Origin: an uncultured bacterium
Lineage (GTDB): Bacteria > Omnitrophota > Gorgyraeia > Ghiorseimicrobiales > Ghiorseimicrobiaceae
Direction: 5' to 3'
Length of the DNA stretch: 64,000 bases
Assembly (NCBI GenBank): GCA_913009335.1
Contig: CAJVXN010000001.1
Coordinates: 2,844-66,843 of the forward strand
The translations under genes and the position numbers were made by a program. The notes below the pieces were generated by a model. It was not told the DNA's origin. It saw only the letters and a program-made list of their open reading frames with translations, and did not search any database. Position 1 is the stretch's first letter, and every line of letters starts with the position of its first letter. This document shows, one piece after another, positions 851 to 59,478 of this stretch.

Positions 851-2149
851 TTATTGCGCTCCGATATCAGTAGGTGCCCGGCCCAGGCGATATAACAGCT
901 TAAGGCTACGGGCAATCTGGGTCTCTACTTTTATATTGCGACTCCTGCGATTAGGATAAATATCATAAAGCCTGCGAAAATCTATTGGGGTAACATTAAT
1001 CATCAATGAATTAGCCCCGGCACTTAGGGCTTTTTCTTTAGCGGGTTTAGCTAAAGTCTCGGTTGCTGTTGTAACCAATATACGCGACTTCTTATCTATT
1101 ATGCGGGCAAGAGAAATCACCCTTAGCATTTTAGCCAATCGTATTTTCTTTAAAGAAGCCAATGGAGTATCCAGATGGGGTATTAAAGGACCGAATGAAT
1201 ACATCTCAGGCTTAAGTTTTTTAGTTAACTTAATATTATTTAGAATATCGGTATCGGTCTCATTGGGAAGACCGACTAAAAATCCTGTTGCAACCAAATA
1301 GCCTATATTCTTTAATGATTTTATAAGTTTTAACCTGTCTTCTAATTTTTTTTCCGGCCGCAGCGCCGAGTATATTTTAGGATTTGCACTTTCAAATCTT
1401 AAAAGCGCGCCTCGCACTCCAGCGTCAAAAAATGCCTGATAATCAGATTCAGATCTCTCTCCTAAGCTTAAAAAAATCAATACCGCGTATTTCTGCCTTA
1501 TTTTTCTTATAATTTCTAATACGCGAGCTTTAGTATAATAGGCATCCTCTCCAGCCTGTAATACCAGCACCTTAAATCCGCGCGAATTTACCGCGTAATC
1601 TACTGCCTCTAAAATCTGGTTTAATTTTAAACGATAGCGCTTTAATTTTTTATTGCTCTTTCTAATACCGCAATAAAGACAATCCCTCACGCAATAATTA
1701 GATATTTCTATTATTCCATGAATACAGCATGAGTTATCTATATATTTATTCCGTATTCTATTGGCTAGTTGTTGCGAAAATTTTCCCTCATCGCTACTTA
1801 CTCCATTTAATAAATATAAATAATCAGTTACTGACAACCTGCGTTTTTCATCAATCTTCTTAATAATAGCATCATAAGGCTTAGAAAGCCTAAGCCCTGA
1901 ATAACTTTTATTAATAAGGCTTTCGTCTTGATTTTTTAATTTACTAAACAGAACCTTCCATGTTTTTAATATGCTCTGCGCTTGAAGATGCGGTATTTTG
2001 CGTATTGCCATGCCCGCCTGCACATAAACATAATCTCCGATATCAAAATCCAATAAATCCTTCAGGACTTTCCTTTTCTGGCCGAAATACTCAACAGTAG
2101 CAAATCTTTCTTCTATCTTTATAACCCTGGCGGGTATTGCGTAACACAC
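851..2149 (-). CDS. HydE-like radical SAM maturase with an N-terminal HypC/HupF-like domain (fusion protein, 432 aa)
   Basis: The N-terminus reads MCYAIPARVIKIE...VEYFGQKRKV...DIGDYVYVQAGMAI, the HypC signature (MCxAIP with Cys2; the position of the conserved His is a Gln). Residues ~90-432 match the HydE/BioB family: IIEISNYCVRDCLYCGIRKSNKKLKRYRL, VLVLQAGEDAYY, GPLIPHLDTPLA. This resembles Thermotoga HydE as I remember it. Confidence 0.6.
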   Translation of the reverse strand: MCYAIPARVIKIEERFATVEYFGQKRKVLKDLLDFDIGDYVYVQAGMAIRKIPHLQAQSILKTWKVLFSKLKNQDESLINKSYSGLRLSKPYDAIIKKIDEKRRLSVTDYLYLLNGVSSDEGKFSQQLANRIRNKYIDNSCCIHGIIEISNYCVRDCLYCGIRKSNKKLKRYRLKLNQILEAVDYAVNSRGFKVLVLQAGEDAYYTKARVLEIIRKIRQKYAVLIFLSLGERSESDYQAFFDAGVRGALLRFESANPKIYSALRPEKKLEDRLKLIKSLKNIGYLVATGFLVGLPNETDTDILNNIKLTKKLKPEMYSFGPLIPHLDTPLASLKKIRLAKMLRVISLARIIDKKSRILVTTATETLAKPAKEKALSAGANSLMINVTPIDFRRLYDIYPNRRSRNIKVETQIARSLKLLYRLGRAPTDIGAQ

Positions 2150-41181: not shown

Positions 41182-42879
41182 TTAAGTCTTTTTCTTCTCA
41201 ATCCGTATAAGAGTATCCACGATTTTTTTATCAAAATGCGCGCCCGCTTCTTCTTTTAATATTTGAAATGCTTTTTTCTTCGAAAATGCTTTTCGATAGG
41301 GCCTATCAGATGTAAGAGCCTGATATGCATCGGCGATTGCAATAATGCGGGCACACAACGGGATCTCTCCGTTTTTAAGATGTGACGGGTAACCCATCCC
41401 ATCCAATCTCTCGTGGTGATGAAGAACTATAGGCACAACGTCTTTTAAAAAATGTACGGCACGAATAATCTCGGCCCCTATCTGAGGATGTGTCTTAATT
41501 ATTTTGTATTCTTCGGGAGTAAGCTTACCTTTTTTTCGCAGTATCTCATCACTTATGCCGATTTTACCTATATCATGCAAAACAGCGGCCTTCTCCAGAT
41601 TATCTAAGATATTTTTATTTAATCCTATTTTTTTACCTATATCTGAAGCAATGGCGATCATTCTATCTGCATGCTCGGCCGTATAATAATCTCTCGCCTC
41701 AAGAGACTTAGAAAAAGCATACATCGACTCAAGTACCGCCTGATCAACCCGTTGCCCTAATTTTGTTATTTTCCTCTTAAGAATCTCTACTTCTTCCTTG
41801 TAATTTATCTTCCCGGATCTTTTCTTCTTATCTTTATATAGAGCACTAAAAACTGCTGTACGATTTCCTCCAGTCTCTTTAGCACGTTGCAGCGCCTTAT
41901 CTGCGGCATCAAATATTTCCTTTGTCTCGGTCAATTTACTCTCTCGGGAAAATTCTGATATACCAATACTGACTCTAATCTTAATAGATACATTACCTAT
42001 TTTAAAAATATGTTTATTTACTTGCTCTATTATTCTATTGGCGGTATTTAAAGCATTTCTTTTAGTAGCCTGCGGCATAACAACAACAAACTCTTCTCCG
42101 CCGTATCTTGTTAAAGTATCGCTCTTACGCAGGAGATTCTTAATGAAACCGGAAAGCTCCAATAGAACCCTATCTCCGATCTGATGCCCATATACATCAT
42201 TTATAGATTTAAAATAATCAATATCAATAATCAAAAGCGAAAGGGAAAAATAATGCCTTTTGCAAAGTTCAATTTCGGCTGATAATCTATCCATAAGATA
42301 GCGATAATTATAAAGTCCCGTGTGAGGATCCCGCAGCGTTAGCTCTTTTAATCTCTGCATATACCGCCTGCTCTCATCCTCTATTTTTCTACTCTCTGTA
42401 ATATCCCTTGAAATATGAACAATGGCTTTTATTTTTTTCCTGCTATCAAATACGGGATAGGTAATTACTTCTGAAAAATAAGGCTTACCCTTTCCATCAT
42501 AATGTGTATGCTCAGCCCTGGCAACTTCACCGGTTTTAATAGTTTCCTGCATCGGGCATGTATCCTTCGGAGGCATACATGGTGAGCTTCTTTTATGGGT
42601 GATTTCATAGCACTTTTTACCCCTGATATCTTTTAATGAAAACCCTTCCTTTTGTAGGTATTTCTTGTTTGCGGTAAGTATTGAATAATCACAAGGATCT
42701 ATAACTATTAATATATCAGATATGACATCGATGATATCGCGGAAAAGCGCCCTATCAAGCTCCATATCGAGCTCATTAGACTTACCAGCATTAATCGCAA
42801 ATCCATAACCGTTTGCGGCCAATGAAGTCTTTTTCTTGCATTGTTTAACTTTTTTATTTTTGGTTTGCTTTTTTTTCAT
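41182..42879 (-). CDS. PAS-GGDEF-HD-GYP signalling protein (c-di-GMP cyclase/phosphodiesterase)
   Basis: RYGGEEF (GGDEF). HD...HHHERLDGMGYP (HD-GYP). The N-terminal PAS-like region carries several Cys (CYEITHKRSSPCMPPKDTCPMQ). Confidence 0.8.
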   Translation of the reverse strand: MKKKQTKNKKVKQCKKKTSLAANGYGFAINAGKSNELDMELDRALFRDIIDVISDILIVIDPCDYSILTANKKYLQKEGFSLKDIRGKKCYEITHKRSSPCMPPKDTCPMQETIKTGEVARAEHTHYDGKGKPYFSEVITYPVFDSRKKIKAIVHISRDITESRKIEDESRRYMQRLKELTLRDPHTGLYNYRYLMDRLSAEIELCKRHYFSLSLLIIDIDYFKSINDVYGHQIGDRVLLELSGFIKNLLRKSDTLTRYGGEEFVVVMPQATKRNALNTANRIIEQVNKHIFKIGNVSIKIRVSIGISEFSRESKLTETKEIFDAADKALQRAKETGGNRTAVFSALYKDKKKRSGKINYKEEVEILKRKITKLGQRVDQAVLESMYAFSKSLEARDYYTAEHADRMIAIASDIGKKIGLNKNILDNLEKAAVLHDIGKIGISDEILRKKGKLTPEEYKIIKTHPQIGAEIIRAVHFLKDVVPIVLHHHERLDGMGYPSHLKNGEIPLCARIIAIADAYQALTSDRPYRKAFSKKKAFQILKEEAGAHFDKKIVDTLIRIEKKKT

Positions 42880-42897: not shown

Positions 42898-43086
42898 TTA
42901 CGGATGATTAAGCCTGAACCATTCACACGTAAAACACTTCTTAATACCTTGTTTATTCACTCTCCCGCAGTATCCAGAAGCAACATGCCAGCAAGGCTGT
43001 CCGGACTTAAAAGCAGGACAGCTATTCCTCGTCTCCAGACTACACTGCCAATACTCCCAGCATTTCTTTGCATCTTTATTAGGCAC
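42898..43086 (-). CDS. Small Cys-rich protein (62 aa), paralog of 53203-53463
   Basis: CWEYWQC...CPAFK...PCW...C...C..C. Cys spacing and the CWE, CPA(F/Y)K and PCW motifs are conserved with the second copy despite divergent DNA. Confidence 0.5.
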   Translation of the reverse strand: MPNKDAKKCWEYWQCSLETRNSCPAFKSGQPCWHVASGYCGRVNKQGIKKCFTCEWFRLNHP

Positions 43087-44672
43087 TATTTCTTAACTAT
43101 CCTCTTGGGAATCTTAAAAACAAACTTGCTGCCCTTACCAATCTCCGACTCTACCCAAACTTCACCTTTATGTGCCTGGACGATAGCCTTAACAACAGAC
43201 AAGCCTAAACCTGTTCCACCTTTCTGACGTGCCTGCTTATCGTATATCTGTTTAAACTTATCAAATATATCCGCTTTTGCATCATCGGAAATTCCCGGAC
43301 CAGTGTCGCTTACTGAACACTCCAGAAAATCTTTTTTTTCTTCAACTTCAATCTTAATCTCTCCGCCCTCAGGTGTAAATTTAACAGCATTAGAGACAAG
43401 GTTTATCATAACCTGTTCTACTTTATTAAAATCAGCGGAAATCTTCAATAAACCTTTAGGCAGTAAAGAACTTACCTTTATCTTTTTCTGTTTAATTAAA
43501 ACTTCAAAATCACTCAGGCAGCGCTGTATAATACTCCCCACATCAACATCTTCAATAGTTAATTCATATAGACCGGATTCAAATTTAGATAAATCCAAAA
43601 GATCGCTTGTTAAATCCAATAAACGATCAGAAGTATTTTTGATTATTTCAAGACATTCTCTCTGGGGCTTATTTATTTCTCCTACTACACCATCTAAAAC
43701 ATTTCCCGCGCTTGCTTTAATTATACTTAAAGGGGTCTTTAATTCATGCGTTGCCATAGAAATAAAATCTGCTTTTATCTGTTCAGCTTCTTTGATTTTA
43801 GTAATATCTTTTAGTACGCAGACAGCACCAACTAATTTTCGCTCATCATCTCTCAATAAAGATACGCTAAGTAAAGCGGACATTATTCCATTACGCCTAC
43901 GTTGAGCAAACTTAAACTCAACTTCCACATCAATAGCATCTTTACCCGATGTAAATACGTCATAAAAATAACATGCATCCTTACATAATGACCCCGAAAA
44001 AACATCGCAGCATTTCTTTCCCAATGCGTTTTTTACCGGTATAGTTGTCATCTGCGCCATAATCGGATTATAAGAAGTAATCGTCCTTTCTTCATCAACA
44101 ACCACTAAACCTTCAGCAAGACTAGATAGTATAGTTTCAACTTTTAATCTTTCTAGTGTCGAGCTGTAAAGATGCTTGTCGAGTAATGCTGAAAGTTTGG
44201 ATAAAATCTCAATAGGATCAGAAAGAGAAACCCCCGGAATATCAACATCACTTTTGATTTTACTGTATCTTGCGACAAACTTCTTAACTGTCTTAAGAAT
44301 AGTCTTGGGAGTATTGAAATCTTTAACCATAAACTCATCCGCACCCGTCTCAAGACTCCAAAATTTTTCAGTTTTTCCTTCCGCGCTCGTTAAAATTATT
44401 ACGGGTATATCACAAACACTTACATCATCCTTAAGCAAGCGGCAGACCTGATAACCGTTAACTTTCGGCATAAATATATCCAGGAGTATAGTATCCGGAC
44501 GCTCTAAATACGCCGCCTCTATTGCTTCAATACCGTTTGAAGCGGTCAGCGTAACATATCCGGCGCCCTGCAAAATAGAACTCAACATGTTTCTTACTGT
44601 AGGACTATCATCGGCGATTAAAATTTTACTTTGACTCATTTCGGTCTCACCGTCTCGATATTTTTCTTGCAT
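43086..44672 (-). CDS. Hybrid sensor kinase: N-terminal receiver + PAS-like + HisKA + HATPase
   Basis: REC (ILIADDSPTVRN...ILLDIFMP). HisKA (ATHELKTPLS). HATPase (GGTGLGLSVVK). Confidence 0.8.
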   Translation of the reverse strand: MQEKYRDGETEMSQSKILIADDSPTVRNMLSSILQGAGYVTLTASNGIEAIEAAYLERPDTILLDIFMPKVNGYQVCRLLKDDVSVCDIPVIILTSAEGKTEKFWSLETGADEFMVKDFNTPKTILKTVKKFVARYSKIKSDVDIPGVSLSDPIEILSKLSALLDKHLYSSTLERLKVETILSSLAEGLVVVDEERTITSYNPIMAQMTTIPVKNALGKKCCDVFSGSLCKDACYFYDVFTSGKDAIDVEVEFKFAQRRRNGIMSALLSVSLLRDDERKLVGAVCVLKDITKIKEAEQIKADFISMATHELKTPLSIIKASAGNVLDGVVGEINKPQRECLEIIKNTSDRLLDLTSDLLDLSKFESGLYELTIEDVDVGSIIQRCLSDFEVLIKQKKIKVSSLLPKGLLKISADFNKVEQVMINLVSNAVKFTPEGGEIKIEVEEKKDFLECSVSDTGPGISDDAKADIFDKFKQIYDKQARQKGGTGLGLSVVKAIVQAHKGEVWVESEIGKGSKFVFKIPKRIVKK

Positions 44673-46180
44673 GCGGCAAGCAAAACTTCGGTTGTTACAT
44701 CCTCTGAAAATGTAATTATTTCATTTTTCGGTTTACTCTCAAGTATATTTATCGCGTTTTTAAATTCTCTTTTTGCTTCCGCATATTTACCCTGACAATA
44801 AAAAATGTTCGCAAGATTAAAATGCGCTAAAACTATTTTCCCATCAATATAGATTACCTTCTTAAACTCTTCTATTGCCATACTAAAATCCTCAAGTTTG
44901 TTGCTAAGAACCCCCATTAGATAATAGGCCTCTATAAAAAGATTATCTGCTTTAATAATTTTTTTTAATTCTATTACTGCCTCTTTATATTTTCCCTGAT
45001 TAGAAAGTATCGTTGCCTTAGCAAAATAAGCCTTAAGAAAATTAGGGTCAGAATTAATAACTCCATTAAATACCTCTAAAGCCTTATCGTGCTCTTTCTG
45101 ATTAAACAACTCAATCCCCTCTTGATAACGGGCCTTCATTGCTTCATGGGATAACTTTTCTTTTTTTGCCACTATTTCTTCTATATCAATAAGAAGATCT
45201 TCGTCTTCATCCGTAGAAATAGAGCCCAGGTCAAGTTCCGGTATGTTGATAAAAGGTTTTTCTGTTTCATATACAGGAACATCTGTAAGTTGTTTTTTAT
45301 ATACGAAAACATGGGGGAATTCTATTGATTTAAATTTAGTTGATATCTGCCATAAGCTTTCAGCCGGACCAATAAACAACGAACCCTGATCGTTTACAGA
45401 TTCATAAAATTTATCGATAATCCGCTTTGTAGTCTCGAGGTCAAAATAAATAAGTACATTTCGGCAAAATATAACATCCACACCCTTCATATATTCTATA
45501 TTAATCGCGTCTTTTGCTAAATTGTGTTCCGTGAATCGAACTAATCTTTTAATCTCATCAGAAACTTCGTATTTATCGTCCCTTTGAATAAAATATTTAT
45601 CTAAAATAGCCGGGCCTAGATTTCGCAATGAACGCCCCTTGTAGAATCCCAGCTTAGCGCGAGAGATGCGTTCGCGATTAACATCTGTTGCCAGTATAGA
45701 TACTGTATGATAATTAGCCTCGGGCATAATCTCTAGGATTTTAATGGCTAAAGAATATGGCTCCTCACCGGTAGAGCATCCCGCGGACCAAATTTTTATA
45801 ACCGGATTATCCAAACCAAGAAAGTTATTCGCAGATACTCTTTTTAAAATATCATACTTACGGCGAATTATCTCCGGCAGGATAAATTCACTAAACACAT
45901 CAAGTTGCGCCGGAGTCCTAAAGAATTCTGTCTCCCCGATAGTTATCGATTCCAAGAGAAGGTGTAATTCAACACGCCCTTCAGAAGAAGAAACTATAAA
46001 ATTATAATATTCATCAAAAGAGGAAAAACTATTTTTAAGGAGCCTTTCCAGTAAAGACATGGCCAGGGAATCTTTTTGATCGTCGCTAAAATATATACCG
46101 CTTTCATCAAGGATAAGTTGACGAAAGAACTTAAAACTATCATTGCTTAAATTGTGACCATCTAAAGAAGATCTGCGCAT
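44636..46180 (-). CDS. cheR: Chemotaxis methyltransferase CheR with C-terminal TPR repeats
   Basis: CheR N-terminal and SAM-binding domains (IWSAGCSTGEEPYS). TPR region. 514 aa. The annotated start overlaps the upstream kinase, so a later Met is likely. Confidence 0.8.
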   Translation of the reverse strand: MRRSSLDGHNLSNDSFKFFRQLILDESGIYFSDDQKDSLAMSLLERLLKNSFSSFDEYYNFIVSSSEGRVELHLLLESITIGETEFFRTPAQLDVFSEFILPEIIRRKYDILKRVSANNFLGLDNPVIKIWSAGCSTGEEPYSLAIKILEIMPEANYHTVSILATDVNRERISRAKLGFYKGRSLRNLGPAILDKYFIQRDDKYEVSDEIKRLVRFTEHNLAKDAINIEYMKGVDVIFCRNVLIYFDLETTKRIIDKFYESVNDQGSLFIGPAESLWQISTKFKSIEFPHVFVYKKQLTDVPVYETEKPFINIPELDLGSISTDEDEDLLIDIEEIVAKKEKLSHEAMKARYQEGIELFNQKEHDKALEVFNGVINSDPNFLKAYFAKATILSNQGKYKEAVIELKKIIKADNLFIEAYYLMGVLSNKLEDFSMAIEEFKKVIYIDGKIVLAHFNLANIFYCQGKYAEAKREFKNAINILESKPKNEIITFSEDVTTEVLLAACKKNIETVRPK

Positions 46181-46251: not shown

Positions 46252-46614
46252 CTAAGGAAGCATACTATTAGCTGCTTCAATTATTTTTAAAGGGTCCGTA
46301 TCTTTAGTAATAAATTTATCTGCGCCGCACTCAAGCCCAAGATTTTTTGAATCACTATCTTGACGTCCGGTAAGCATTATGACTTTTATTTGCTTTAACT
46401 TTTCGTCCTTTTTAATCATTGTGCACACATGAAAACCGTCCATCTTCGGAAGCATTAAATCCAGAAGCATTAAATCCGGCATTTCTTTTCGCGCAAGAGT
46501 TAATGCATCTATACCGTTATCAGAAGTTATAATCTTACATTTATCCGACTCAAGCCCTTTCTTAAGAAGCGCAACTATGGTAGGACTGTCATCTACGATT
46601 AAAACCTTAGCCAT
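46252..46614 (-). CDS. cheY: Chemotaxis response regulator CheY
   Basis: 120 aa receiver. DDSPT...LMLLDLMLPKMDG...K. Confidence 0.8.
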   Translation of the reverse strand: MAKVLIVDDSPTIVALLKKGLESDKCKIITSDNGIDALTLARKEMPDLMLLDLMLPKMDGFHVCTMIKKDEKLKQIKVIMLTGRQDSDSKNLGLECGADKFITKDTDPLKIIEAANSMLP

Positions 46615-47101
46615 TTATCTTCCTCCTTCTTACCTGTAGTAAGTGTTTTATTTCTTTATCGCTTAATACAGATGCTAAATCAAGAACAATGGTCATTTTT
46701 TCATTAATTTTTGCAACACCTGCAATAACATCATTATTTATTTGAGAACTTACAACCTCCGGCGCATTTTCTAATTTTTGCTCATCTAAATCCACCACTT
46801 TAAGCACGCTGTCTACAATAATCCCCAATAACGCATCTTTAATACGTGTAATTATAATACGTGTATCTTTATTTATTTGGCGGCTATTTAAATCAAAATA
46901 TTTACGCAGATCAACAATCCCTATAATGTGACCCCGTAAATCTATAACCCCTTCGATAAATTCCGGTGTTTTAGGCACCGGAGAAATCTCGCGAAACATC
47001 AAAACTTCCCTTACGCACTTTACATCTACAGCAAAATGCTGCCCACTCAAAGTAAAAACAACTATGTTAATTTTCTTTTCATCTCTTATCAAATCACTCA
47101 T
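46607..47101 (-). CDS. cheW: Chemotaxis coupling protein CheW
   Basis: 164 aa CheW-like domain (FTLSGQHFAVDV). Confidence 0.8.
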   Translation of the reverse strand: MSDLIRDEKKINIVVFTLSGQHFAVDVKCVREVLMFREISPVPKTPEFIEGVIDLRGHIIGIVDLRKYFDLNSRQINKDTRIIITRIKDALLGIIVDSVLKVVDLDEQKLENAPEVVSSQINNDVIAGVAKINEKMTIVLDLASVLSDKEIKHLLQVRRRKING

Positions 47102-47112
47102 TACCTTTTGCC

Positions 47113-48174
47113 TTATGTTGAGCGCGATACCATATCAATAATTGCTTCAGCTATTAATTCAGGAGGCAGCACTTTATCTATATTCCCTGCCTCGATTGCT
47201 TCTTTGGGCATACCATAAATAACACAGGATTCTTCATTCTGGGCTATGGTTCTTCCGCCTAATTGTTTAATCGTTTTGATACCCGAAACTCCATCTTTAC
47301 CCATCCCGGTTAATATTACGCCTATTGTTTTACTACCATAATTCTTAGCCGCAGACTCAAATAAAACATCGGCAGAAGGTTTAAAATGTCCGCACGGAGC
47401 ATCATCGGTAAGCCCGATTATTCCTTCTCTATATATTACCATGTGGGTATCCGTAGGAGCTACATAAGCCGTACCCATTTCAAGTTTTTGGTTATCCCGG
47501 GGTATTTTTACTTCCAACGGGCAATTTTTAGATAACCACTCCACAAAACCTTCATCAAAACCCCTGGCAATATGCTGAACCACTAAAATAGCAGCAGGAA
47601 TGCTAGGAGGAATTTTCGCTAAAATTGAAGCGACTACCTGTGGGCCGCCGGTTGAGGCTGCGATTACTACAATATTGTTAAAAGTCGTACTTTCAGATAC
47701 CCCTTCTATTATTTTTTTCAGACTAGATGGTTTCGGCTTAATCTGTAATTTTGCCAGAGGATGCCTAATTACTTTTATTTTCGATAAAAGTTTTATCTTT
47801 TCGATAAGATCATCGACTCCATCATTCCCTGTAGAATCTTGCTCAAAATTTGTCTTCTCTAAAACATCCAAGGCGCCAAACGATATTGCCTGGAAAACTT
47901 TATTTTTCTTTCGCGAATGTGAAGCAGTTAAAATAAGAATGGGCGTGGGGCGATATGCCATGATTTGTTTTGTAGCCTCAACTCCATCCATATCAGGCAT
48001 CATAATATCCATGGTTATGATATCCGGCTTAAGGTCCATAGACATCTTAATACCTTCTCTACCTGTTACGGCTACACCAACTACTTTTAATTCTGGATCA
48101 GAATCAAAAATCCTGGTTAAAATTTTTGATACCAAAAGAGAATCTTCAACTATAAGAAGTTTAATCAATTTCAT
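47113..48174 (-). CDS. cheB: Chemotaxis methylesterase CheB (receiver + methylesterase)
   Basis: REC domain plus esterase with AASTGGPQ and GMGKDG motifs. 353 aa. Confidence 0.85.
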   Translation of the reverse strand: MKLIKLLIVEDSLLVSKILTRIFDSDPELKVVGVAVTGREGIKMSMDLKPDIITMDIMMPDMDGVEATKQIMAYRPTPILILTASHSRKKNKVFQAISFGALDVLEKTNFEQDSTGNDGVDDLIEKIKLLSKIKVIRHPLAKLQIKPKPSSLKKIIEGVSESTTFNNIVVIAASTGGPQVVASILAKIPPSIPAAILVVQHIARGFDEGFVEWLSKNCPLEVKIPRDNQKLEMGTAYVAPTDTHMVIYREGIIGLTDDAPCGHFKPSADVLFESAAKNYGSKTIGVILTGMGKDGVSGIKTIKQLGGRTIAQNEESCVIYGMPKEAIEAGNIDKVLPPELIAEAIIDMVSRST

Positions 48175-48219: not shown

Positions 48220-49512
48220 TCAAGTGTTACTAATTTCCTCATCGAGGTTAAATTTACTTATCGTTTCTTTAAACGTCTCTGACATTTTTTTCAATTGAAG
48301 ACAACTACCCGCTATCTGTTTAGCTGCTACAACAAACTGCTTAGTGACCGTATCCATATTTCTCATTGCCTCAGCTACCTGGCTTGAAGCGCTTTTTTGC
48401 TGCTGGGTAGCCAGAGAGATTTCTTTAGACATCTTGGCCGTATCATCTACCATGGTCAACCCCTCAGATACACCTCGCGTGGAATCTTCTATACCCATAA
48501 CAACGCTATTAGTCTCTGCTTGAATTTCACCGATTAACTGCCTTATCTCTTCAGTCGACTCAATAGAACGCTCAGCTAGTTTTCTCACCTCATTGGCAAC
48601 AACTGCAAAACCCCTACCGGCTTCGCCTGCGCGGGCAGCTTCAATAGCAGCGTTTAGAGCGAGAAGATTTGTCTGGCCCGACAAATCATCAATCATTGTT
48701 GTGATTTTTCCTATAGCGTATGATTTCTCACCTAGAGAAAGGATTTTCTTTGCCGCCTCGGAAACCTTAGTATTTGCCTCTTTCATTTCAAGAAGTGTTC
48801 TTTCCGCAGCTCGGGTTACATTATAAGCATTTTCCGCAATACTTGATGCGGTACGAGAAAGCTCTTCCATAGTACTACTGGTCTCTGTCACAGCAGACGA
48901 TTGCTCAGCTAACCCTACACTCTGCTGCTCTGTGGATGATCTAATCTGTGAAGCTTCTTTGTTTAACTCTAACCCTGCATCGCGAACCTGTTTAATTAAT
49001 TGACGTAAATTTCTAATCATTCGGTTAAAAGATTCTGCGAGAGGCTGCAAAACAGGAACAACTTGCGTATCTACCTGACGCGTTAAATCATTATTACTAG
49101 AGGCTGCTACCGCGGTCTCTATAAGTTTACTGATACCGCCTTCTAACTCTTTTTTTTCCTTAACCGCAGCGCCTTCTTCCATTCTCTTATCAATTATCAT
49201 TTCATGCATAACATTAACTGTATCATTAAAGCTAACCGCGAATTTTCCGAATTCATCATTAGTTTTAATATCTAGAACAAGATCATAATTCCCCATACTT
49301 AATCCTCGGGATGTCGTCAATATAACACTTAGCGGCAACACCACCTTTTTAATCATGCGCCAAGCTATGAAAATAAATAAACACACTATGAGTAATTGCG
49401 CGATCAGTTTTATGCTTATATGGATAGCTAAGAATCCTATACCTAAAACTCCCATAACACTCATAATAACACTACCAGCAGTTATTAGGATTAATTTATA
49501 TTTTAGCGACAT
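48220..49512 (-). CDS. Methyl-accepting chemotaxis protein with a TM hairpin and HAMP but no periplasmic sensor domain
   Basis: Two N-terminal TM helices, HAMP, MCP signalling domain ([24 protein letters not shown]). 430 aa. Confidence 0.85.
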
Positions 49513-49564: not shown

Positions 49565-51868
49565 TTATCCTATCAACCCTTGGATGGTATCAATAAGGTT
49601 TGACTGGTCAAACGCAGTCTTAACAATATAAGCCTGAGCCCCCACCTCTATTCCGCGCCTTTTATCTTCTTCTTTTGCCAACGCGGTAACAAATATTATA
49701 GGGATTCCCTCATAGCGTTCATTTTGCTTAAATGTCTTACAAAATTCAAAACCATCCATTCGAGGCATCTGAACATCACAAACTATTAAATCGTATTTTG
49801 CCTGCGCTAATTTATCCAAACCTTCTAATCCGTCTATAGCCGTATCTACTAAATACCCCTGAACCTCCAAAATACTGCGCTCAAGCTCCCGAGTTGTTAA
49901 AGAATCCTCAACAACCAATATTCTCTTCTTGGTTTTTCCTTTTACGCTCGGTACTCTTTCCTGCGCAGGCGCGGCAGTAGATAAACGACTGGATATTATT
50001 AAATCCGCAACATCTAAAATAACCACTACCTCCCCCGTGCCCAACACTGTTGCTCCGGAAACATTTCTCACCTTCCCTAAATGAACACCTAGATTCTTGA
50101 TAAAAACTTCCTGCTCCCCTATCACACCATCTACGATAAACCCAACTCTTTTATCTAAAGATTTAACTATAATCACGGATAATGTTTTACTTTGTTTAGC
50201 GTTTTTTTCCTCAACAATAGGCGCAATTCCCAAGATATCCCCTAGACGCGATAATGAAACTGCATGATCTCTTACTTGAGTTACCAATTTATTCTCTACC
50301 GTTGAAATACTATCTGCCTTAATCTCTAGGGCCTCTTCTATTGAAAGCATAGGTACTGCGCATATTTGATTGCTCACGTTAATCAGAAGCACATCAATTA
50401 TCGCGATAGTAAGCGGAAGTTCTAAGATCATTAAAACTCCCTTGCCTTTTTCTGACTCAATATGAACCTTCCCTTTTAACTTATCTATCTGATTTTTAAC
50501 TACATCTAATCCTATGCCTCTTCCGGAAATATCCGTAATAATAGGAGAAGTAGAAAACCCGCTCTTAAAAATAAAAGCGTATATTTGCTCATCATTCATG
50601 GCGCTGAGTTCTATCTCTGAACACAAATTCTTTTTAATAATTATCTGCTTAATTTTATCCAAATCCAACCCTTTACCGTCATCGTATATACGAATAACTA
50701 CCTGCCCTCCCTCCTGCGAAGCAGAAAGTTCTATAGTTCCTTCTTCATTTTTACCAAGCTTACGCCTTGCAAGAGATGTCTCAATACCATGGTCAACACA
50801 ATTACGTAAGATATGAACAAGCGGAGATTTTATACCTTCAAGCACTTTTTTATCTAATTCAGTTTCTTCACCCTTAATCACCAAATTAACCTTTTTCGCC
50901 TGCTCATACGCGATATCACGGACTAGACGCGGGAATTCATCAAAGATACTAGAACAGGGAAGCATCCGCATTTCTTTCATCCGTTCCTGCAATTCATCAA
51001 CTACCGGATCAGTGTGTATGGCTTCATTGGAAATATTTTCAAAAATATCCAGCATTTCCTCTTTTATCTTCTCAGCATCAACGTTACACTGATGCAGCGC
51101 CTCCAAAGCATAATCAAAGCTTGCGCTTTCACAAAAATCATCGTTATTTTTAAACTCTTCGGAAAATGCAGCCAATCTTCTCTGGAAATTTTTTGTCAGC
51201 TTATTAATTTTTTTCAGGGTAATTATTTTTTGAGATGCTTTAATTTTATTTATCACCATCTCCCCTAATAAATTAAGCAACTTATTTATACGAGACAAAG
51301 GCACACGTATATATTCCTCTGAAGGAGATGTAAAAAATTCTGAATCGCTAGCTGTTATAGCAACTGCGGATTCTACCTGAGGAGGGGGGATAGATTCAGC
51401 AGGAGAAGCAGCATTCTCTTCTTTTTTCTTAGCTTTTCGGGAAGATTTTTTAGATTTTTTTTCCGGAATACTTACATCTTGCGGCAAGCACAATTCTAAA
51501 TTACTACATATAGAGGAAACGTCAATAGTTACTTTTTTATTTCCGGCAATACTACTTACAGTACTCTTTATAGAATCTAAAGCCTCAAAGATGATACTTG
51601 CTATTTTGGGAACAAATTTTAAACGCTTATCCGTTACCGCGCTAAAGATATCTTCTATGCGATGAGATATTTCCTGTATCTCAAAAAAACCCATCATTCG
51701 AGCGACACCCTTTAACGTATGGGCCGTACGGAATAAATCCTTAATCAAATCAAAATCATCAGGTTTCTTCTCCAGGCGGACTAAGCCCTTGCTTAATTTA
51801 TTCAGGTGCTCATCAACCTCTGCTTTAAATGTAGCAAAAAATTCTGAACGATTAAAATTACCGGCCAT
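49565..51868 (-). CDS. cheA: Chemotaxis histidine kinase CheA with C-terminal receiver
   Basis: Hpt (HTLKG), HATPase, CheW-like domain and C-terminal REC (ILVVEDS...DVQMPRMDG). 767 aa. Confidence 0.85.
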   Translation of the reverse strand: MAGNFNRSEFFATFKAEVDEHLNKLSKGLVRLEKKPDDFDLIKDLFRTAHTLKGVARMMGFFEIQEISHRIEDIFSAVTDKRLKFVPKIASIIFEALDSIKSTVSSIAGNKKVTIDVSSICSNLELCLPQDVSIPEKKSKKSSRKAKKKEENAASPAESIPPPQVESAVAITASDSEFFTSPSEEYIRVPLSRINKLLNLLGEMVINKIKASQKIITLKKINKLTKNFQRRLAAFSEEFKNNDDFCESASFDYALEALHQCNVDAEKIKEEMLDIFENISNEAIHTDPVVDELQERMKEMRMLPCSSIFDEFPRLVRDIAYEQAKKVNLVIKGEETELDKKVLEGIKSPLVHILRNCVDHGIETSLARRKLGKNEEGTIELSASQEGGQVVIRIYDDGKGLDLDKIKQIIIKKNLCSEIELSAMNDEQIYAFIFKSGFSTSPIITDISGRGIGLDVVKNQIDKLKGKVHIESEKGKGVLMILELPLTIAIIDVLLINVSNQICAVPMLSIEEALEIKADSISTVENKLVTQVRDHAVSLSRLGDILGIAPIVEEKNAKQSKTLSVIIVKSLDKRVGFIVDGVIGEQEVFIKNLGVHLGKVRNVSGATVLGTGEVVVILDVADLIISSRLSTAAPAQERVPSVKGKTKKRILVVEDSLTTRELERSILEVQGYLVDTAIDGLEGLDKLAQAKYDLIVCDVQMPRMDGFEFCKTFKQNERYEGIPIIFVTALAKEEDKRRGIEVGAQAYIVKTAFDQSNLIDTIQGLIG

Positions 51869-51877
51869 CTTTTTAGA

Positions 51878-53029
51878 TTACTCCCTATCGCCCATATCTT
51901 CTTTAAATTTATTTACAGATTTTTTAAGATCAACAGCTAATTCATTTAACTTTTGCGCACTGGAAACAGACTGCTTGGCTGACACAGCAAATTGCTTTGT
52001 TACTGTATCGACATTTCTCATTGCCTCCGCTACCTGACTTGAAGCGCTTTTTTGCTGCTGGGTAGCTAAGGAGATTTCTTTAGACATTTTAGCTGTATCC
52101 CCTACCATACTTAACCCCTCGGATACACCTCTGGTAGACTCCTCTATCCCCATAACAACACTATTTGTACCTGCCTGGATTTCATTGATTACCTGTCTAA
52201 TCTCCTCAGTCGATTCGACGGAACGTTCTGCCAACTTACGTATCTCACTTGCTACTACGGCAAAACCCCTGCCGGCTTCACCCGCGCGGGCAGCTTCAAT
52301 AGCAGCGTTTAAGGCAAGAAGATTTGTCTGGCTGGATAAATCATCAATCATTGCGCTAATTTTTCCTACAGTCTGCGATTTCTCCCCCAAAGCAAGAATC
52401 TTTTTAGCAGCATCAGTAACTTTATTATTTGCCTCTTTCATCTCAAGAAGTGTTCTTTCCGCGGACCTGGTTACATTATAAGCATTTTCCGCAATACTTG
52501 ATGCCGTGCGGGAAAGTTCTTCCATAGTAGTTGAGGTCTCCGTAACGGCTGAAGACTGCTCCGCAGCTCCGGAAGCCTGATCTTCTGTTGTAGCCATTAT
52601 CTGAGCAGCGCAAGAAGTAATCTCCAGGCTTGCCTGACGAATCTGATGCATTAGCTCCTTAACAATAGACATACGCTTAACTGCTGCTCCTTCTTCCATC
52701 CTCTTTTCAATAAGCATTTCATGGATAACCTCAATTGCCTGATTAAAACTTTTAGCAAATTTACCAAACTCATCATTGCCCTTTATATCCAAAACAAGAT
52801 CATAATTACCGTAACTAATACCCTTAGCCACAATTATCAAGGTATCCAAAGGAGCAAGCAATTTAGCAATAACGAATCCACTGATAATCAGCGAGACAGC
52901 CACAAATAATACCACATAAAGCAATTTTTGCAGAGGGCCCAACCCTAAAGAGCTAAGCCAGGATATGCCAAATACCAGTAAGATTACAAAAACCCCTACC
53001 AGTAAAAGCAATTTATACTTTACCTTCAT
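51878..53029 (-). CDS. Methyl-accepting chemotaxis protein, paralog of 48220-49512 (signalling domains ~88% identical)
   Basis: Same architecture. A near-identical MA domain means an ~800-bp dispersed DNA repeat. Confidence 0.85.
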
Positions 53030-53202: not shown

Positions 53203-53463
53203 TTACTGAGTAATTTTTATATCTTCGCCCTTGCCGTGATCTTTGTAAACTTTACAAATCTTACAAACACTGACGTCTACTCCGCTTTCACCCTTACAAA
53301 TCGTACCTTTAATAACCCAGCAAGGATACTCTTGTTTTTTATACGCGGGACAACTCGGCGCACCTCCGGGTTTAACCTCACAGCCTCTTACTTCCCAACA
53401 AGCAGTTTTATCAGTCCAAAAACCCTTTCCTTTTGATAAAGCCATTTTCATTCCTCCTTTCAA
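53203..53463 (-). CDS. Small Cys-rich protein (86 aa), paralog of 42898-43086
   Basis: CWEVRGC...SCPAYK...PCW...C...C..C. It is the first gene upstream of the MCP. Confidence 0.5.
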   Translation of the reverse strand: MKGGMKMALSKGKGFWTDKTACWEVRGCEVKPGGAPSCPAYKKQEYPCWVIKGTICKGESGVDVSVCKICKVYKDHGKGEDIKITQ

Positions 53464-53522: not shown

Positions 53523-54107
53523 TCATTTAAACGCAAGTATTTTTTCCACATTCAGAATCGCAAAGAAAATATTTTTCAACTTACAAACCCCTACGATATA
53601 TTCCGCCCTCGAGGGATCCAAAGTCTCCAGCGGCGGGTCAATCTTACTTAGCTCAATCTCCATGGCCTTAGGAGTTCTATCTACTACAATAGTTGTTTCA
53701 AATTCTCCTGCCTGAATAACTAAAATATGGCTTTCCTTTGTCGTTGGAACGGGGCTAAGCCCAAGTAATTTTCTTAAATCTGTAACCGAAACAATATTTC
53801 CCCGTAAATTTACTATTCCGGCAATATGCAGTGGCGCGCACGGTAAATAAGTAATAGTCGAAAGTGCAGACACATCCTTTATTTTTGAAATTTCAACCCC
53901 GTACCACTCATTACCTAAAACAAAACTAATAAATTGCAGTTTGGACTTCTTAGGCTTGCCCCCTTCTTCGTAAAGATCAGGGATTAATTCTACGCCGGCC
54001 TCAAGTACCTGCTTTTTTTTTATTTGCTTCTTTGACTGTTTAGACATAATAACGTAATATAAAATTATTACTACTGTTAAAATACCACAAAAAATATATA
54101 AAGGCAA
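53523..54107 (-). CDS. CheW-like protein with an N-terminal transmembrane anchor
   Basis: N-terminal TM helix (LYIFCGILTVVIILYYVIM) followed by a CheW domain (EWYGVEISKIKDV...VNLRGNIV). Confidence 0.65.
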   Translation of the reverse strand: MPLYIFCGILTVVIILYYVIMSKQSKKQIKKKQVLEAGVELIPDLYEEGGKPKKSKLQFISFVLGNEWYGVEISKIKDVSALSTITYLPCAPLHIAGIVNLRGNIVSVTDLRKLLGLSPVPTTKESHILVIQAGEFETTIVVDRTPKAMEIELSKIDPPLETLDPSRAEYIVGVCKLKNIFFAILNVEKILAFK

Positions 54108-54112
54108 TATTT

Positions 54113-54988
54113 TTATAACCTTTCCGGCTCCATATGGATAATTACATCCGTTACACCGAAAATATTCTTTTTTATTTGTCCTTCTATTTCGTAGCTTATT
54201 TTATGAGCATATTTCATATGCATATCAGGCCTTACCTCAACATGCAGATCCACATGCACATCATCGCATCTGCCGCGTGTTCTAATTTTATGAACACTTG
54301 ATACTCCCTCAATGCCTAAAACCAATTTTTCAATCCGCTCAGCATCTACAGGAGCAGTATCACAAAGAACAGATGAGCTTTCTTTTAAGATTTCAAATCC
54401 GGTATAAATAATAAATATAGCAATAATAATAGCAGCTATTGGGTCAAGTAAAGGCCAACCGAATTTGACAGCAACCAAAGCAAAAATTACTGAAATTGAA
54501 GTAAATATATCTGCCCGCGTATGCATAGAATCCGCTATCAAAATATCACTGTTTAGCTTTTTCCCTGCGCGATATTCGTATAACATAACAGCAAGATTAA
54601 TTATCAAAGTAGACAGCATTACAACAAAACTTAAAATAGTCACATTAGGCGACGCATCCTGGCTAAAACGCATAACACTGGAATAAACTATTCGAATAGA
54701 AACAAGAAATAATAAAAACGCAATACCTAAAGAGGCAAATGTTTCATATTTTTTGCGGCCATAAGGATGAGTCTCATCCCTTGGACGGGAGGCGAGCCAT
54801 ATGCCGAACAAACCGATAATGTTTGATGCCCCGTCGGCAAATGAATGATAGCCGTCGGCAACCATAGCATTGCTCATTATGATATATCCGCAGACAAGCT
54901 TAGCAAAAGATACCAACCAGTTTAAGCCTAATATATAAACAAGTATAGCTCTTATACGCTGCGTTCTATGTTGTTCTTTTGGATCCAT
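54113..54988 (-). CDS. Cation diffusion facilitator family metal efflux transporter
   Basis: Six TM helices. HSFADGASN and HTRAD motifs. C-terminal cytoplasmic domain. 291 aa. Confidence 0.75.
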   Translation of the reverse strand: MDPKEQHRTQRIRAILVYILGLNWLVSFAKLVCGYIIMSNAMVADGYHSFADGASNIIGLFGIWLASRPRDETHPYGRKKYETFASLGIAFLLFLVSIRIVYSSVMRFSQDASPNVTILSFVVMLSTLIINLAVMLYEYRAGKKLNSDILIADSMHTRADIFTSISVIFALVAVKFGWPLLDPIAAIIIAIFIIYTGFEILKESSSVLCDTAPVDAERIEKLVLGIEGVSSVHKIRTRGRCDDVHVDLHVEVRPDMHMKYAHKISYEIEGQIKKNIFGVTDVIIHMEPERL

Positions 54989-55334
54989 ATTTACTTATTA
55001 GATTATCTATTTCCTTAAGAGGGAAAGGTTTCCTTAAAAATACATCTATGCCGGCTATCTTAGCAAAATCTTCTTTAATACCACTATAACCGGAGACCAT
55101 AATCAATACGGCCTGCGGATTTTCTTTTTTAATAATCCGAATTAAATCGACCCCGGAAAGACGCGGCATATCACAATCAAAAAAAATAATACCGTAATTA
55201 GCTTTTTCAAGATAATATTTAGCCTCCTCTCCGTCAAAAGCAACAGTTACCTGATATTTATTCTTTTTTTCTAAATACTTTTTTATATCAAGACAATACT
55301 GCCTATCATCATCAACAAATAAAATTTGCATCAT
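54966..55334 (-). CDS. Single-domain response regulator (receiver)
   Basis: MMQILFVDDD...IFFDCDMPRLSG...K. 122 aa. Confidence 0.7.
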   Translation of the reverse strand: MMQILFVDDDRQYCLDIKKYLEKKNKYQVTVAFDGEEAKYYLEKANYGIIFFDCDMPRLSGVDLIRIIKKENPQAVLIMVSGYSGIKEDFAKIAGIDVFLRKPFPLKEIDNLISKYGSKRTT

Positions 55335-58257: not shown

Positions 58258-59478
58258 ATGAACTATCTTGGTATCGATATCTCAAAATCAACCGCCCGTT
58301 GTGTCATTATCAATAATGACGGCGAAAAAAGCGTAAAACCGTTTACGCTTAAAAACAACAAACACGAATTCAATGAACTTATTGAACGTTTAAAAAAACA
58401 TGATCTAAACTATGAAAATCTGCTTATCGGCATTGAAGCCACCGGTATTTGGTGGGAAAACATTTATTGTTTTCTAACTGAACAAAAATTTAAAATAGTT
58501 GTTCTTAACCCCCACCAGACAAACAAGTTTAGAGAAGCTTTGCGTAAAAAAGCAAAAACCGATGATATTGACGCTTATGTTATTGCCGGGCTTATGCGTT
58601 CAAACGAATACGCTCAAAGCTTTGTGCCTGAAGAAGCTGTTCAAATCCTAAAGGATTTTACTAAACTCAGATACAGGCTTATCAAAGATCAAAAAGACTA
58701 TCAAAGACAGGCATTAAGCTTGCTGGCTTTGGTTTTTCCTGAATATGAACAAACAAAACTAAAAAAACCTTTTGGTATTGCCGCGGCCGCGATTCTTAAA
58801 AAGTTCTCTACCGCAAAACATTTGGCTGAAGCAAAACCTAAACATATTGAGAAAATCGTTCGCTCAATCAAAGGCAATAATTTTAATATCAAGGAAATAA
58901 TACATCTTATACAAACAGCTAAAGACTCTATATATTCCGGCAGAGCTGCTTACGCTCGAGCCTTAAATCTTAATATTATGATAGAACAGGTTCAAAACAT
59001 AAATAAATCTATTGATGAACTTGATAAGGAAATCGAAAATATTCTCTCACCTAAAGATGATAATGAACCCTTTGATTTCCCAGGCGGCAATTTACTCTCT
59101 ATCCCTGGTATAGGGCTAAAAACTATTGCCTCTATTATCTCTGCTGTAGGTATTGATGGCCAATCTTTTAAAGATTCTAAAAAAATTATCGGATATATAG
59201 GATTTTATCCTAAAATCTATCAATCCGGTGAAACTTTAAAAGCAAACAAGATAGCTAAACGCGGCCCTTCATATTTACGTTCCGCTTTATACATAGCTGC
59301 TGTTGCCTGCGTTAAGCATAATGCTGAATTTAAAGCGCTATATCATAAAAAACGATCTCAAGGTAAAGCCGGTAAACAAGCTTTAATCTATGTCGCTAAA
59401 AAACTCGCGCACTTATGTTTAAGCATGCTTAAAAGCGGTGAATTGTATCAACCCCAAAGAGTTTTTATGCCTGTTTAA
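58258..59478 (+). mobile_element. IS110-family transposase gene (insertion sequence; element boundaries not resolved)
   Basis: MNYLGIDISKSTARCVII (DEDD-type N-terminus of IS110/IS116/IS902 transposases). The C-terminal domain carries GIGLKTIASIISAVG. It is the only substantial plus-strand gene in the window. Confidence 0.8.

Follow-up and report, generated by a model that had tools for sequence, protein, structure and literature searches.

The CZB domain of TlpD and DgcZ is a cytoplasmic metal-thiolate sensory module that is found at the C-termini of MCPs and on diguanylate cyclases, and it folds as a four-helix bundle whose zinc is bound by three His and one Cys. H-NOX and NosP are stand-alone haem sensors encoded beside histidine kinases or c-di-GMP enzymes, and the interaction through which they regulate their partner in trans has been demonstrated experimentally. 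Cys-ligated metal centres also serve as redox or O2 sensors, as in SoxR, a MerR-family protein with a [2Fe-2S] centre, and in FNR and NreB, both with a [4Fe-4S] centre.

The two small proteins described here, ORF1 and ORF2, carry a two-CW domain, that is, a domain about 55-70 residues long that follows the pattern CW-x4-C ... CPA[YF] ... CW ... (C) ... CxxC. In protein architecture this domain is placed much as CZB is (at the MCP C-terminus and on diguanylate cyclases), but it has no sequence relation to CZB, and a CZB identity for ORF1 and ORF2 was rejected, with no Pfam CZB match even at E <= 10 and no conserved His in an alignment of 62 two-CW sequences. With H-NOX and NosP, ORF1 and ORF2 share a proposed logic, in which a small cofactor-bearing sensor would regulate an adjacent enzyme that has no sensor of its own; H-NOX and NosP, however, use haem and differ in fold, and the corresponding interaction of ORF1 and ORF2 is one that we infer. 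Proteins in which a MerR HTH is joined to a two-CW domain are laid out like SoxR, a Cys-rich effector part coming after the HTH, whereas the Cys motifs differ from those of SoxR, FNR and NreB and no sequence similarity to these was detected. ORF1 and ORF2 gave no Pfam or NCBIfam match to the FNR, NreB, SoxR or WhiB types, from which they also differ in Cys spacing.

The two genes belong to a single long Che-like cluster on the minus strand of the window, by which we mean the whole 64,000-nucleotide stretch of DNA analysed here, part of a Candidatus Omnitrophota MAG. The genes of the cluster, in order, are as follows.

54966-55334, minus strand: REC protein, head of the cluster
54113-54988, minus strand: CDF cation-efflux transporter (Cation_efflux and ZT_dimer), head of the cluster
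53523-54107, minus strand: CheW, directly upstream of ORF2; mechanical ORF with a TTG start
53203-53445, minus strand: ORF2, stand-alone two-CW protein, 80 aa from its likelier start at ATG 53445
51878-53029, minus strand: MCP 1, with a two-TM hairpin, HAMP and MCPsignal and without a periplasmic domain; candidate partner of ORF2
49565-51868, minus strand: CheA-CheW-REC protein
48220-49512, minus strand: MCP 2, sensor-less
47113-48174, minus strand: CheB
46607-47101, minus strand: second CheW
46252-46614, minus strand: CheY
44636-46180, minus strand: CheR-TPR protein
43086-44672, minus strand: REC-PAS-HisKA-HATPase hybrid kinase, whose translation appears to be coupled to that of ORF1
42898-43086, minus strand: ORF1, stand-alone two-CW protein of the short subtype, 62 aa, GTG start
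41182-42879, minus strand: PAS-GGDEF-HD-GYP protein, starting 18 nt past the end of ORF1

A CTP synthase gene comes next. Both small reading frames are present, on the minus strand, at the positions given by the first-pass annotation, and its account of their immediate neighbours holds: domain annotation and coordinates place ORF1 between the hybrid kinase and the PAS-GGDEF-HD-GYP gene, and ORF2 follows CheW at a distance of 77 nt and precedes by 173 nt an MCP gene whose product is indeed sensor-less, being composed only of a two-TM hairpin, HAMP and a signalling domain. MCP 2 is a paralogue of MCP 1 with the same composition and likewise no periplasmic domain. The earlier picture of two separate genomic contexts, by contrast, gives way to that of a single cluster. 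The GTG of ORF1 overlaps the TAG of the kinase gene by 1 nt, and the ORF1 orthologue at locus L135 overlaps its kinase gene by 8 nt, which suggests that ORF1 and the kinase are translationally coupled.

Several other features of the cluster are worth recording. The CDF gene shares 23 nt with the REC gene before it, and the order REC-CDF-CheW-2CW-MCP is kept in loci L003 and L136; the presence of a conserved metal exporter at this place could mean that metal status plays a part. Each of the two proteins encoded beside ORF1 has a PAS domain with a group of Cys kept in all three orthologues, namely C221, C222, C230 and C234 of the kinase (CC-x7-C-x3-C) and C90, C101 and C108 of the GGDEF-HD-GYP protein (C-x10-C-x6-C; 'KKCYEITH..SPC..PP.D.CPM'), which could provide the cluster with additional metal or redox sites. 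The mechanical ORF of the CheW gene next to ORF2 begins with a TM-like segment; this is probably an artefact of ORF extension, the real start being an internal Met ('MSKQSKK'), because the orthologues have 173-177 aa as against 194 aa here. A promoter and terminator scan gave signals no better than those of shuffles, and Rfam gave no match in the window. Farther out, an IS110-family transposase gene (DEDD_Tnp_IS110 and Transposase_20; 58258-59478, plus strand) is the only sizeable plus-strand gene thereabouts and lies between the upstream neighbours of the cluster and a Na/Ca exchanger gene.

The sequence of ORF1 follows the string 'KxCWEYWxC...CPAF...PCWxVA...C..CxWF..NHP' and that of ORF2 the string 'GFWxxKxxCWE...CPAY...PCWxIKGTxCKG...C..CKVY..HGKG', so that CWE, CPA[FY]K, PCW, a fifth Cys and CxxC, the motifs on which the two had originally been paired, are all found in both. 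Each protein has seven Cys in a shared order. Their spacing, which the first-pass annotation had called identical, is equal at four of the six intervals and differs at the other two (5-7-8-7-10-2 in ORF1 and 5-9-9-7-10-2 in ORF2), and the original wording was thus a slight overstatement. The mechanical ORF of ORF2 comprises 86 aa from TTG 53463 (53203-53463); the true start is more likely to be the ATG at 53445, which would give 80 aa and not 86, because an AGGAGG lies 7 nt upstream of it and orthologues of 79-80 aa begin with MALPKG. A six-frame regular-expression search and a degenerate DNA pattern each found exactly two copies in the window, ORF1 and ORF2, and the DNA pattern had 0 matches over 100 shuffles. 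Both genes are annotated 'hypothetical protein' in the deposited assemblies, and an identical copy of the ORF1 protein is encoded on GCA_011051015.1.

GCA_030681595.1 (loci L003 and L135) has the same cluster with both paralogues at matching positions, while the ORF1 half of the cluster is kept in GCA_002796125.1 and the ORF2 half in a metagenome contig (87% identity). This Che-cluster context was seen in a narrow clade only, in which ORF2 orthologues have 85-87% identity and ORF1 orthologues about 61-65%. Comparison of ORF2 with its L003 orthologue gave a dN/dS of 0.034 (dN 0.081, dS 2.4), and two ORF1 orthologues compared with each other gave 0.16; pairs that include the ORF1 of the window have dN values of 0.23-0.30 with saturated dS. 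With dN/dS values of 0.03-0.16, purifying selection on both genes is strong, which, together with an alignment of the two proteins at 28% identity (BLASTP, E 9e-7), bears out the earlier view of them as real, selected paralogues. It is scarcely credible that they are spurious ORFs or Cys-rich RiPP precursors. Small size, richness in Cys, the bare 'hypothetical protein' label and the GTG start of ORF1 would fit such readings, but purifying selection, hundreds of homologues and the occurrence of the domain inside large cytoplasmic signalling proteins are contrary to them, and we exclude both on the grounds of selection, family size and fusions. For a RiPP precursor in particular, no radical-SAM or other maturase gene is adjacent, the neighbours all being Che, two-component and c-di-GMP genes plus the CDF transporter gene.

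The domain itself is catalogued as NCBIfam NF045718 ('two-CW domain'). ORF1 matches this model with 19.8 bits (E 7.5e-4) over positions 1-76 of 80 and ORF2 with 28.8 bits (E 1.2e-6) over positions 2-76, and neither reaches its curated cut-off of 35 bits. Also below the cut-off, at 20-32 bits, are the relatives P0152, P0156 and P0006 and the MCP-fused protein P0017. Both ORF1 and ORF2 have the two CW motifs and the ordered Cys set across the whole domain; these features recur in canonical members of NF045718, whereas ORF1 and ORF2 are without the canonical inserts 'GREPGG...GVCPA...DGxNxGxNxGR' and form shorter subtypes of their own. In profile-profile comparisons with hhalign, for which the canonical set was formed by the members scoring 100-112 bits on NF045718, the ORF1 type was linked to canonical members at 98.6% (E 1.4e-15), and the ORF2 type at 97.4% (E 8.9e-12); the link between the ORF1 type and the ORF2 type was at 93.6%. 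On the strength of the links to the canonical type, we assign ORF1 and ORF2 by sequence to the catalogued, functionally uncharacterised two-CW superfamily as divergent free-standing members; they are no new fold family.

The superfamily is large. Single-sequence word-indexed searches retrieved only 2 proteins per ORF, so an exhaustive profile search was required; this yielded at least 522 representative clusters at 50% identity (E <= 1e-3). NF045718 is matched by 100 of the best 150 homologues (E <= 1e-3). Three subtypes can be distinguished: the canonical NF045718 type, of about 100 aa, with long inserts and scores of 100-112 bits; the short ORF1 type, '...CPWFKKxNP'; and the ORF2 type, 'FWxxKxPCWE...GTxCK...CxVYxxYGxGxPI'. 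Across 62 diverse domains C16, W17, C22, C32, C42, C61 and C64 (ORF2 numbering) are invariant, and A34, W43 and C50 are nearly so. Literature searches found no paper on the two-CW domain or NF045718.

At E <= 10 the Pfam matches of both proteins amounted to noise below threshold (SWIM, RING and His-Me finger). The SWIM match of ORF1 reached 17.6 bits against a cut-off of 19.6 over 15 residues only, its RING-type match had E = 1, and ORF2 had no match to either in Pfam. The known zinc-finger and ribbon families considered (SWIM, RING, zf-CW) were rejected, with no Pfam match above the gathering score, and no Pfam family covers the two-CW domain among the best 150 homologues. The outcome of checking the proteins against profiles of known domains was thus mixed: NF045718 is matched along its full length, below threshold, and there is no Pfam model for the domain. 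A sequence search of the PDB with two profiles found no match at E <= 10. The AlphaFold2 models had pLDDT values of 52.5 for ORF2 and 62.5 for ORF1, which are too low for fold or metal-site geometry, and fold searches returned noise only.

The proteins into which the domain is built are more informative as to its role. By length, 81 of the best 150 homologues have at most 130 aa and 34 have more than 260 aa, and tandem copies occur in 14. The Pfam partners in this set are HAMP (13), MCPsignal (10), HisKA (8), HATPase_c (6), sCache (6), PAS (4), GAF (4), HD_5 (3), GGDEF (2) and REC (2). One member, P0017, has the architecture TM-HAMP-MCPsignal-2CW, with an ORF2-type domain at the C-terminus, and individual confirmation was likewise obtained for MCPsignal-2CWx2, 2CWx2-GGDEF, 2CWx2-HisKA-HATPase, TM-2CW-HD-GYP, REC-2CW, LysR-2CW and 2CW-ThiF. 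We also ran the degenerate DNA pattern over species-representative genomes, which gave at least 120 loci; among the 120 matches listed, 79 loci were confirmed by HMM, with 82 two-CW proteins, and 41 chance matches were removed. Fusion to HK, MCP, GGDEF, HD-GYP, PAS or REC was seen in 38 of these 82 proteins, while nine, judged by sequence, combine the domain with a MerR HTH and eight with an XRE HTH; when 6 of the MerR and 4 of the XRE fusions were tested against Pfam, all were confirmed. Altogether, among the matches listed, 55/82 two-CW proteins are attached to signal-transduction output modules. This combinatorial fusion to many signalling outputs makes a cytoplasmic sensory input module the most likely role of the domain.

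The one-component regulators with a MerR_1 HTH (L029, L030, L061, L076, L078, L099, L117, L126 and L024) and with an XRE HTH (HTH_3; L022, L027, L032, L043, L050, L062, L079 and L096) belong mostly to Desulfobacterota and Nitrospirota, and several of the MerR-2CW genes adjoin a gene of about 490-670 aa. In Dehalococcoidia (L046, L047, L065 and L094), ORF2-like domains are preceded by a conserved 'VTTVEEIAEIE.VI.EAKGK'; the genes often occur as two adjacent paralogues, and some of the domains are fused to repeats of about 80 aa, 'MRIGD.V.IKEC...PELVGE.A.IV..Q'.

A domain so rich in Cys could also be a purely structural zinc module, serving for adaptation, dimerisation or linkage, in which case ORF1 and ORF2 would be scaffolding subunits of the array or of the kinase complex. 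Six or seven Cys per about 60 residues are typical of zinc modules, the domain is often in tandem and often sits between HAMP and the kinase or other output, which is a linker position, and the weak, sub-threshold SWIM zinc-finger match points the same way. We nevertheless consider this unlikely. In the MerR fusions the two-CW domain follows the HTH directly, in the place of the MerR-family effector domain; it is joined to many unrelated outputs and occurs alone as well; and its restriction to anaerobe lineages would not be expected of a generic zinc module. Regarding this last point, the 79 confirmed loci among the matches listed comprise 37 from Desulfobacterota, 12 from Nitrospirota/Thermodesulfovibrionia, 14 from Chloroflexota, 3 from Omnitrophota and 13 from assorted other groups, so that the first four account for 66/79, whereas the 41 chance matches to the pattern come largely from aerobes (actinomycetes, Acidobacteriota, Alpha- and Gammaproteobacteria). 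Judged by lineage, then, the superfamily is found almost only in anaerobes in this genome sample, among the matches listed.

The six invariant Cys and the one near-invariant Cys within a cytoplasmic domain of 60 residues indicate that the domain most likely holds a metal centre, Fe-S or Zn, by six or seven Cys. The anaerobe distribution makes an Fe-S or redox function that is sensitive to oxygen somewhat more likely, and we count the anaerobic gene content of the host and the conserved CDF exporter in the same direction. The host itself is taken to be an anaerobe because the rest of the window encodes Rnf, a NuoF-like protein, a multihaem cytochrome, a molybdopterin oxidoreductase and radical-SAM proteins. 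A separate observation in the window is a 432-aa ORF (851-2149, minus strand) with N-terminal HupF/HypC followed by Radical_SAM and BATS; this looks like either a fusion of a hydrogenase-maturation chaperone with a HydE/BioB-like radical-SAM protein, which would be unusual, or two genes run together by a wrongly called start.

The idea of the first-pass annotation that ORF1 and ORF2 are sensing accessory subunits draws strength from the recurrent fusion of the domain to chemoreceptors, kinases, c-di-GMP enzymes and MerR or XRE regulators; the small stand-alone relatives do not strengthen it, as they rarely adjoin signalling genes. Among the matches listed, a signalling gene was found at +-1 in 2/35 of their loci, and signalling genes made up 2/65 of the adjacent genes as against 9/124 of distant ones, for which reason we rejected the proposition that small stand-alone two-CW genes are signalling-gene neighbours in general. 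The closest non-syntenic relative of ORF1, P0152 (L128:4404-4628; 66% identity), stands in the row FTHFS, FTCD_C, FolD, 2CW, 5 nt after FolD and 13 nt before a possibly MetF-like gene, a Wood-Ljungdahl methyl-branch context and not a signalling one; the gene that follows it was also tested as an orthologue of the PAS-GGDEF-HD-GYP gene and is not one. Other stand-alone relatives lie beside unrelated genes (Cu-oxidase, PolA, GyrI-like, LRR). In Chloroflexota, on the other hand, an independent subtype of about 110-125 aa, anchored in the membrane by one TM, is found beside an HK-RR pair at 4/4 loci (L019, L066, L111 and L138), with an HK of about 500 aa and a response regulator of about 216 aa within two genes, and one canonical member follows a dCache-PAS kinase gene on the same strand.

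These contexts raise the question of whether ORF1 and ORF2 are small metalloproteins of general use, for instance metal buffers or rubredoxin- or ferredoxin-like electron carriers, whose position in the Che cluster is a lineage-specific accident. The diversity of the stand-alone contexts, folate enzymes included, the lack of enrichment of signalling neighbours and the limitation of the Che-cluster context to close relatives all speak for this possibility. Yet two paralogues that are only 28% identical have both been held at fixed positions of the cluster despite saturated synonymous sites, ORF1 appears to be translationally coupled to the kinase, and two-CW domains, the ORF2 subtype included, are fused to MCPs; we therefore rate an accidental position as quite improbable. 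Both this explanation and the structural zinc module are nonetheless kept live by the stand-alone contexts, the narrow clade and the gap between ORF2 and the MCP gene.

Based on the above data, we propose that ORF1 and ORF2 are free-standing two-CW proteins that would act as metal-centred input modules for redox, oxygen or metal status, working in trans within the Che-like cluster, a reading to which we give a probability of roughly 55%. In this lineage of Omnitrophota, a module that is covalently attached to its outputs in other anaerobes would be provided as two separate small proteins, which are probably detachable metal or redox sensors. ORF2 would dock on the sensor-less MCP or on the CheW-CheA array; for ORF1 the docking partner would be the REC-PAS kinase, the PAS-GGDEF-HD-GYP enzyme or both. 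Depending on whether it is loaded or empty, reduced or oxidised, each metal centre would then bias kinase activity and c-di-GMP turnover. Action in trans is the best-supported model because the MCPs are sensor-less and the ORF2 subtype is fused to an MCP elsewhere, because ORF1 appears coupled to the kinase gene and abuts the GGDEF-HD-GYP gene, and because the Chloroflexota subtype and the canonical member mentioned above are placed next to kinase genes. Counting against it, ORF2 is separated from the MCP gene by the 173-nt gap, upstream of the MCP, whereas in the MCP fusions the domain is C-terminal. We infer the metal binding, the signal and the physical partners of ORF1 and ORF2 from these sequence relationships.

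A wider and more tentative proposal, possible but in our estimation rather less than an even bet, is that the two-CW domain represents an uncharacterised class of Cys-ligated Fe-S or metal sensor for redox or oxygen, which would be widespread in anaerobes and serve all major outputs. In Omnitrophota it would be used as a detachable subunit for sensor-less MCPs and for the pair formed by the kinase and the GGDEF-HD-GYP protein, possibly coupled to metal export by the CDF transporter.

The two-CW domain as such was already catalogued; what is new is the existence of sub-threshold stand-alone variants within a Che-like cluster that is conserved and has ties to c-di-GMP enzymes. Our results show that the curated threshold of NF045718 misses most of the superfamily, and genes like ORF1 and ORF2 consequently stay 'hypothetical protein' in deposited genomes. 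With 62-80 residues, these are the smallest natural two-CW units, and they are encoded beside defined candidate partners, which makes them well suited to studies of the cofactor, of the structure and of the action of a sensor subunit. The cytoplasmic input domains of anaerobe chemoreceptors and kinases are poorly understood, and many MCPs seem to be sensor-less. Given its attachment to outputs as varied as MCPs, kinases, cyclases, phosphodiesterases and three kinds of transcription factor, we regard the two-CW domain as a strong candidate for a general sensor of redox or metal status that would be new, and if it is true that it is a general Fe-S or metal redox sensor of anaerobes that can be used as a detachable subunit, its interest would be high.
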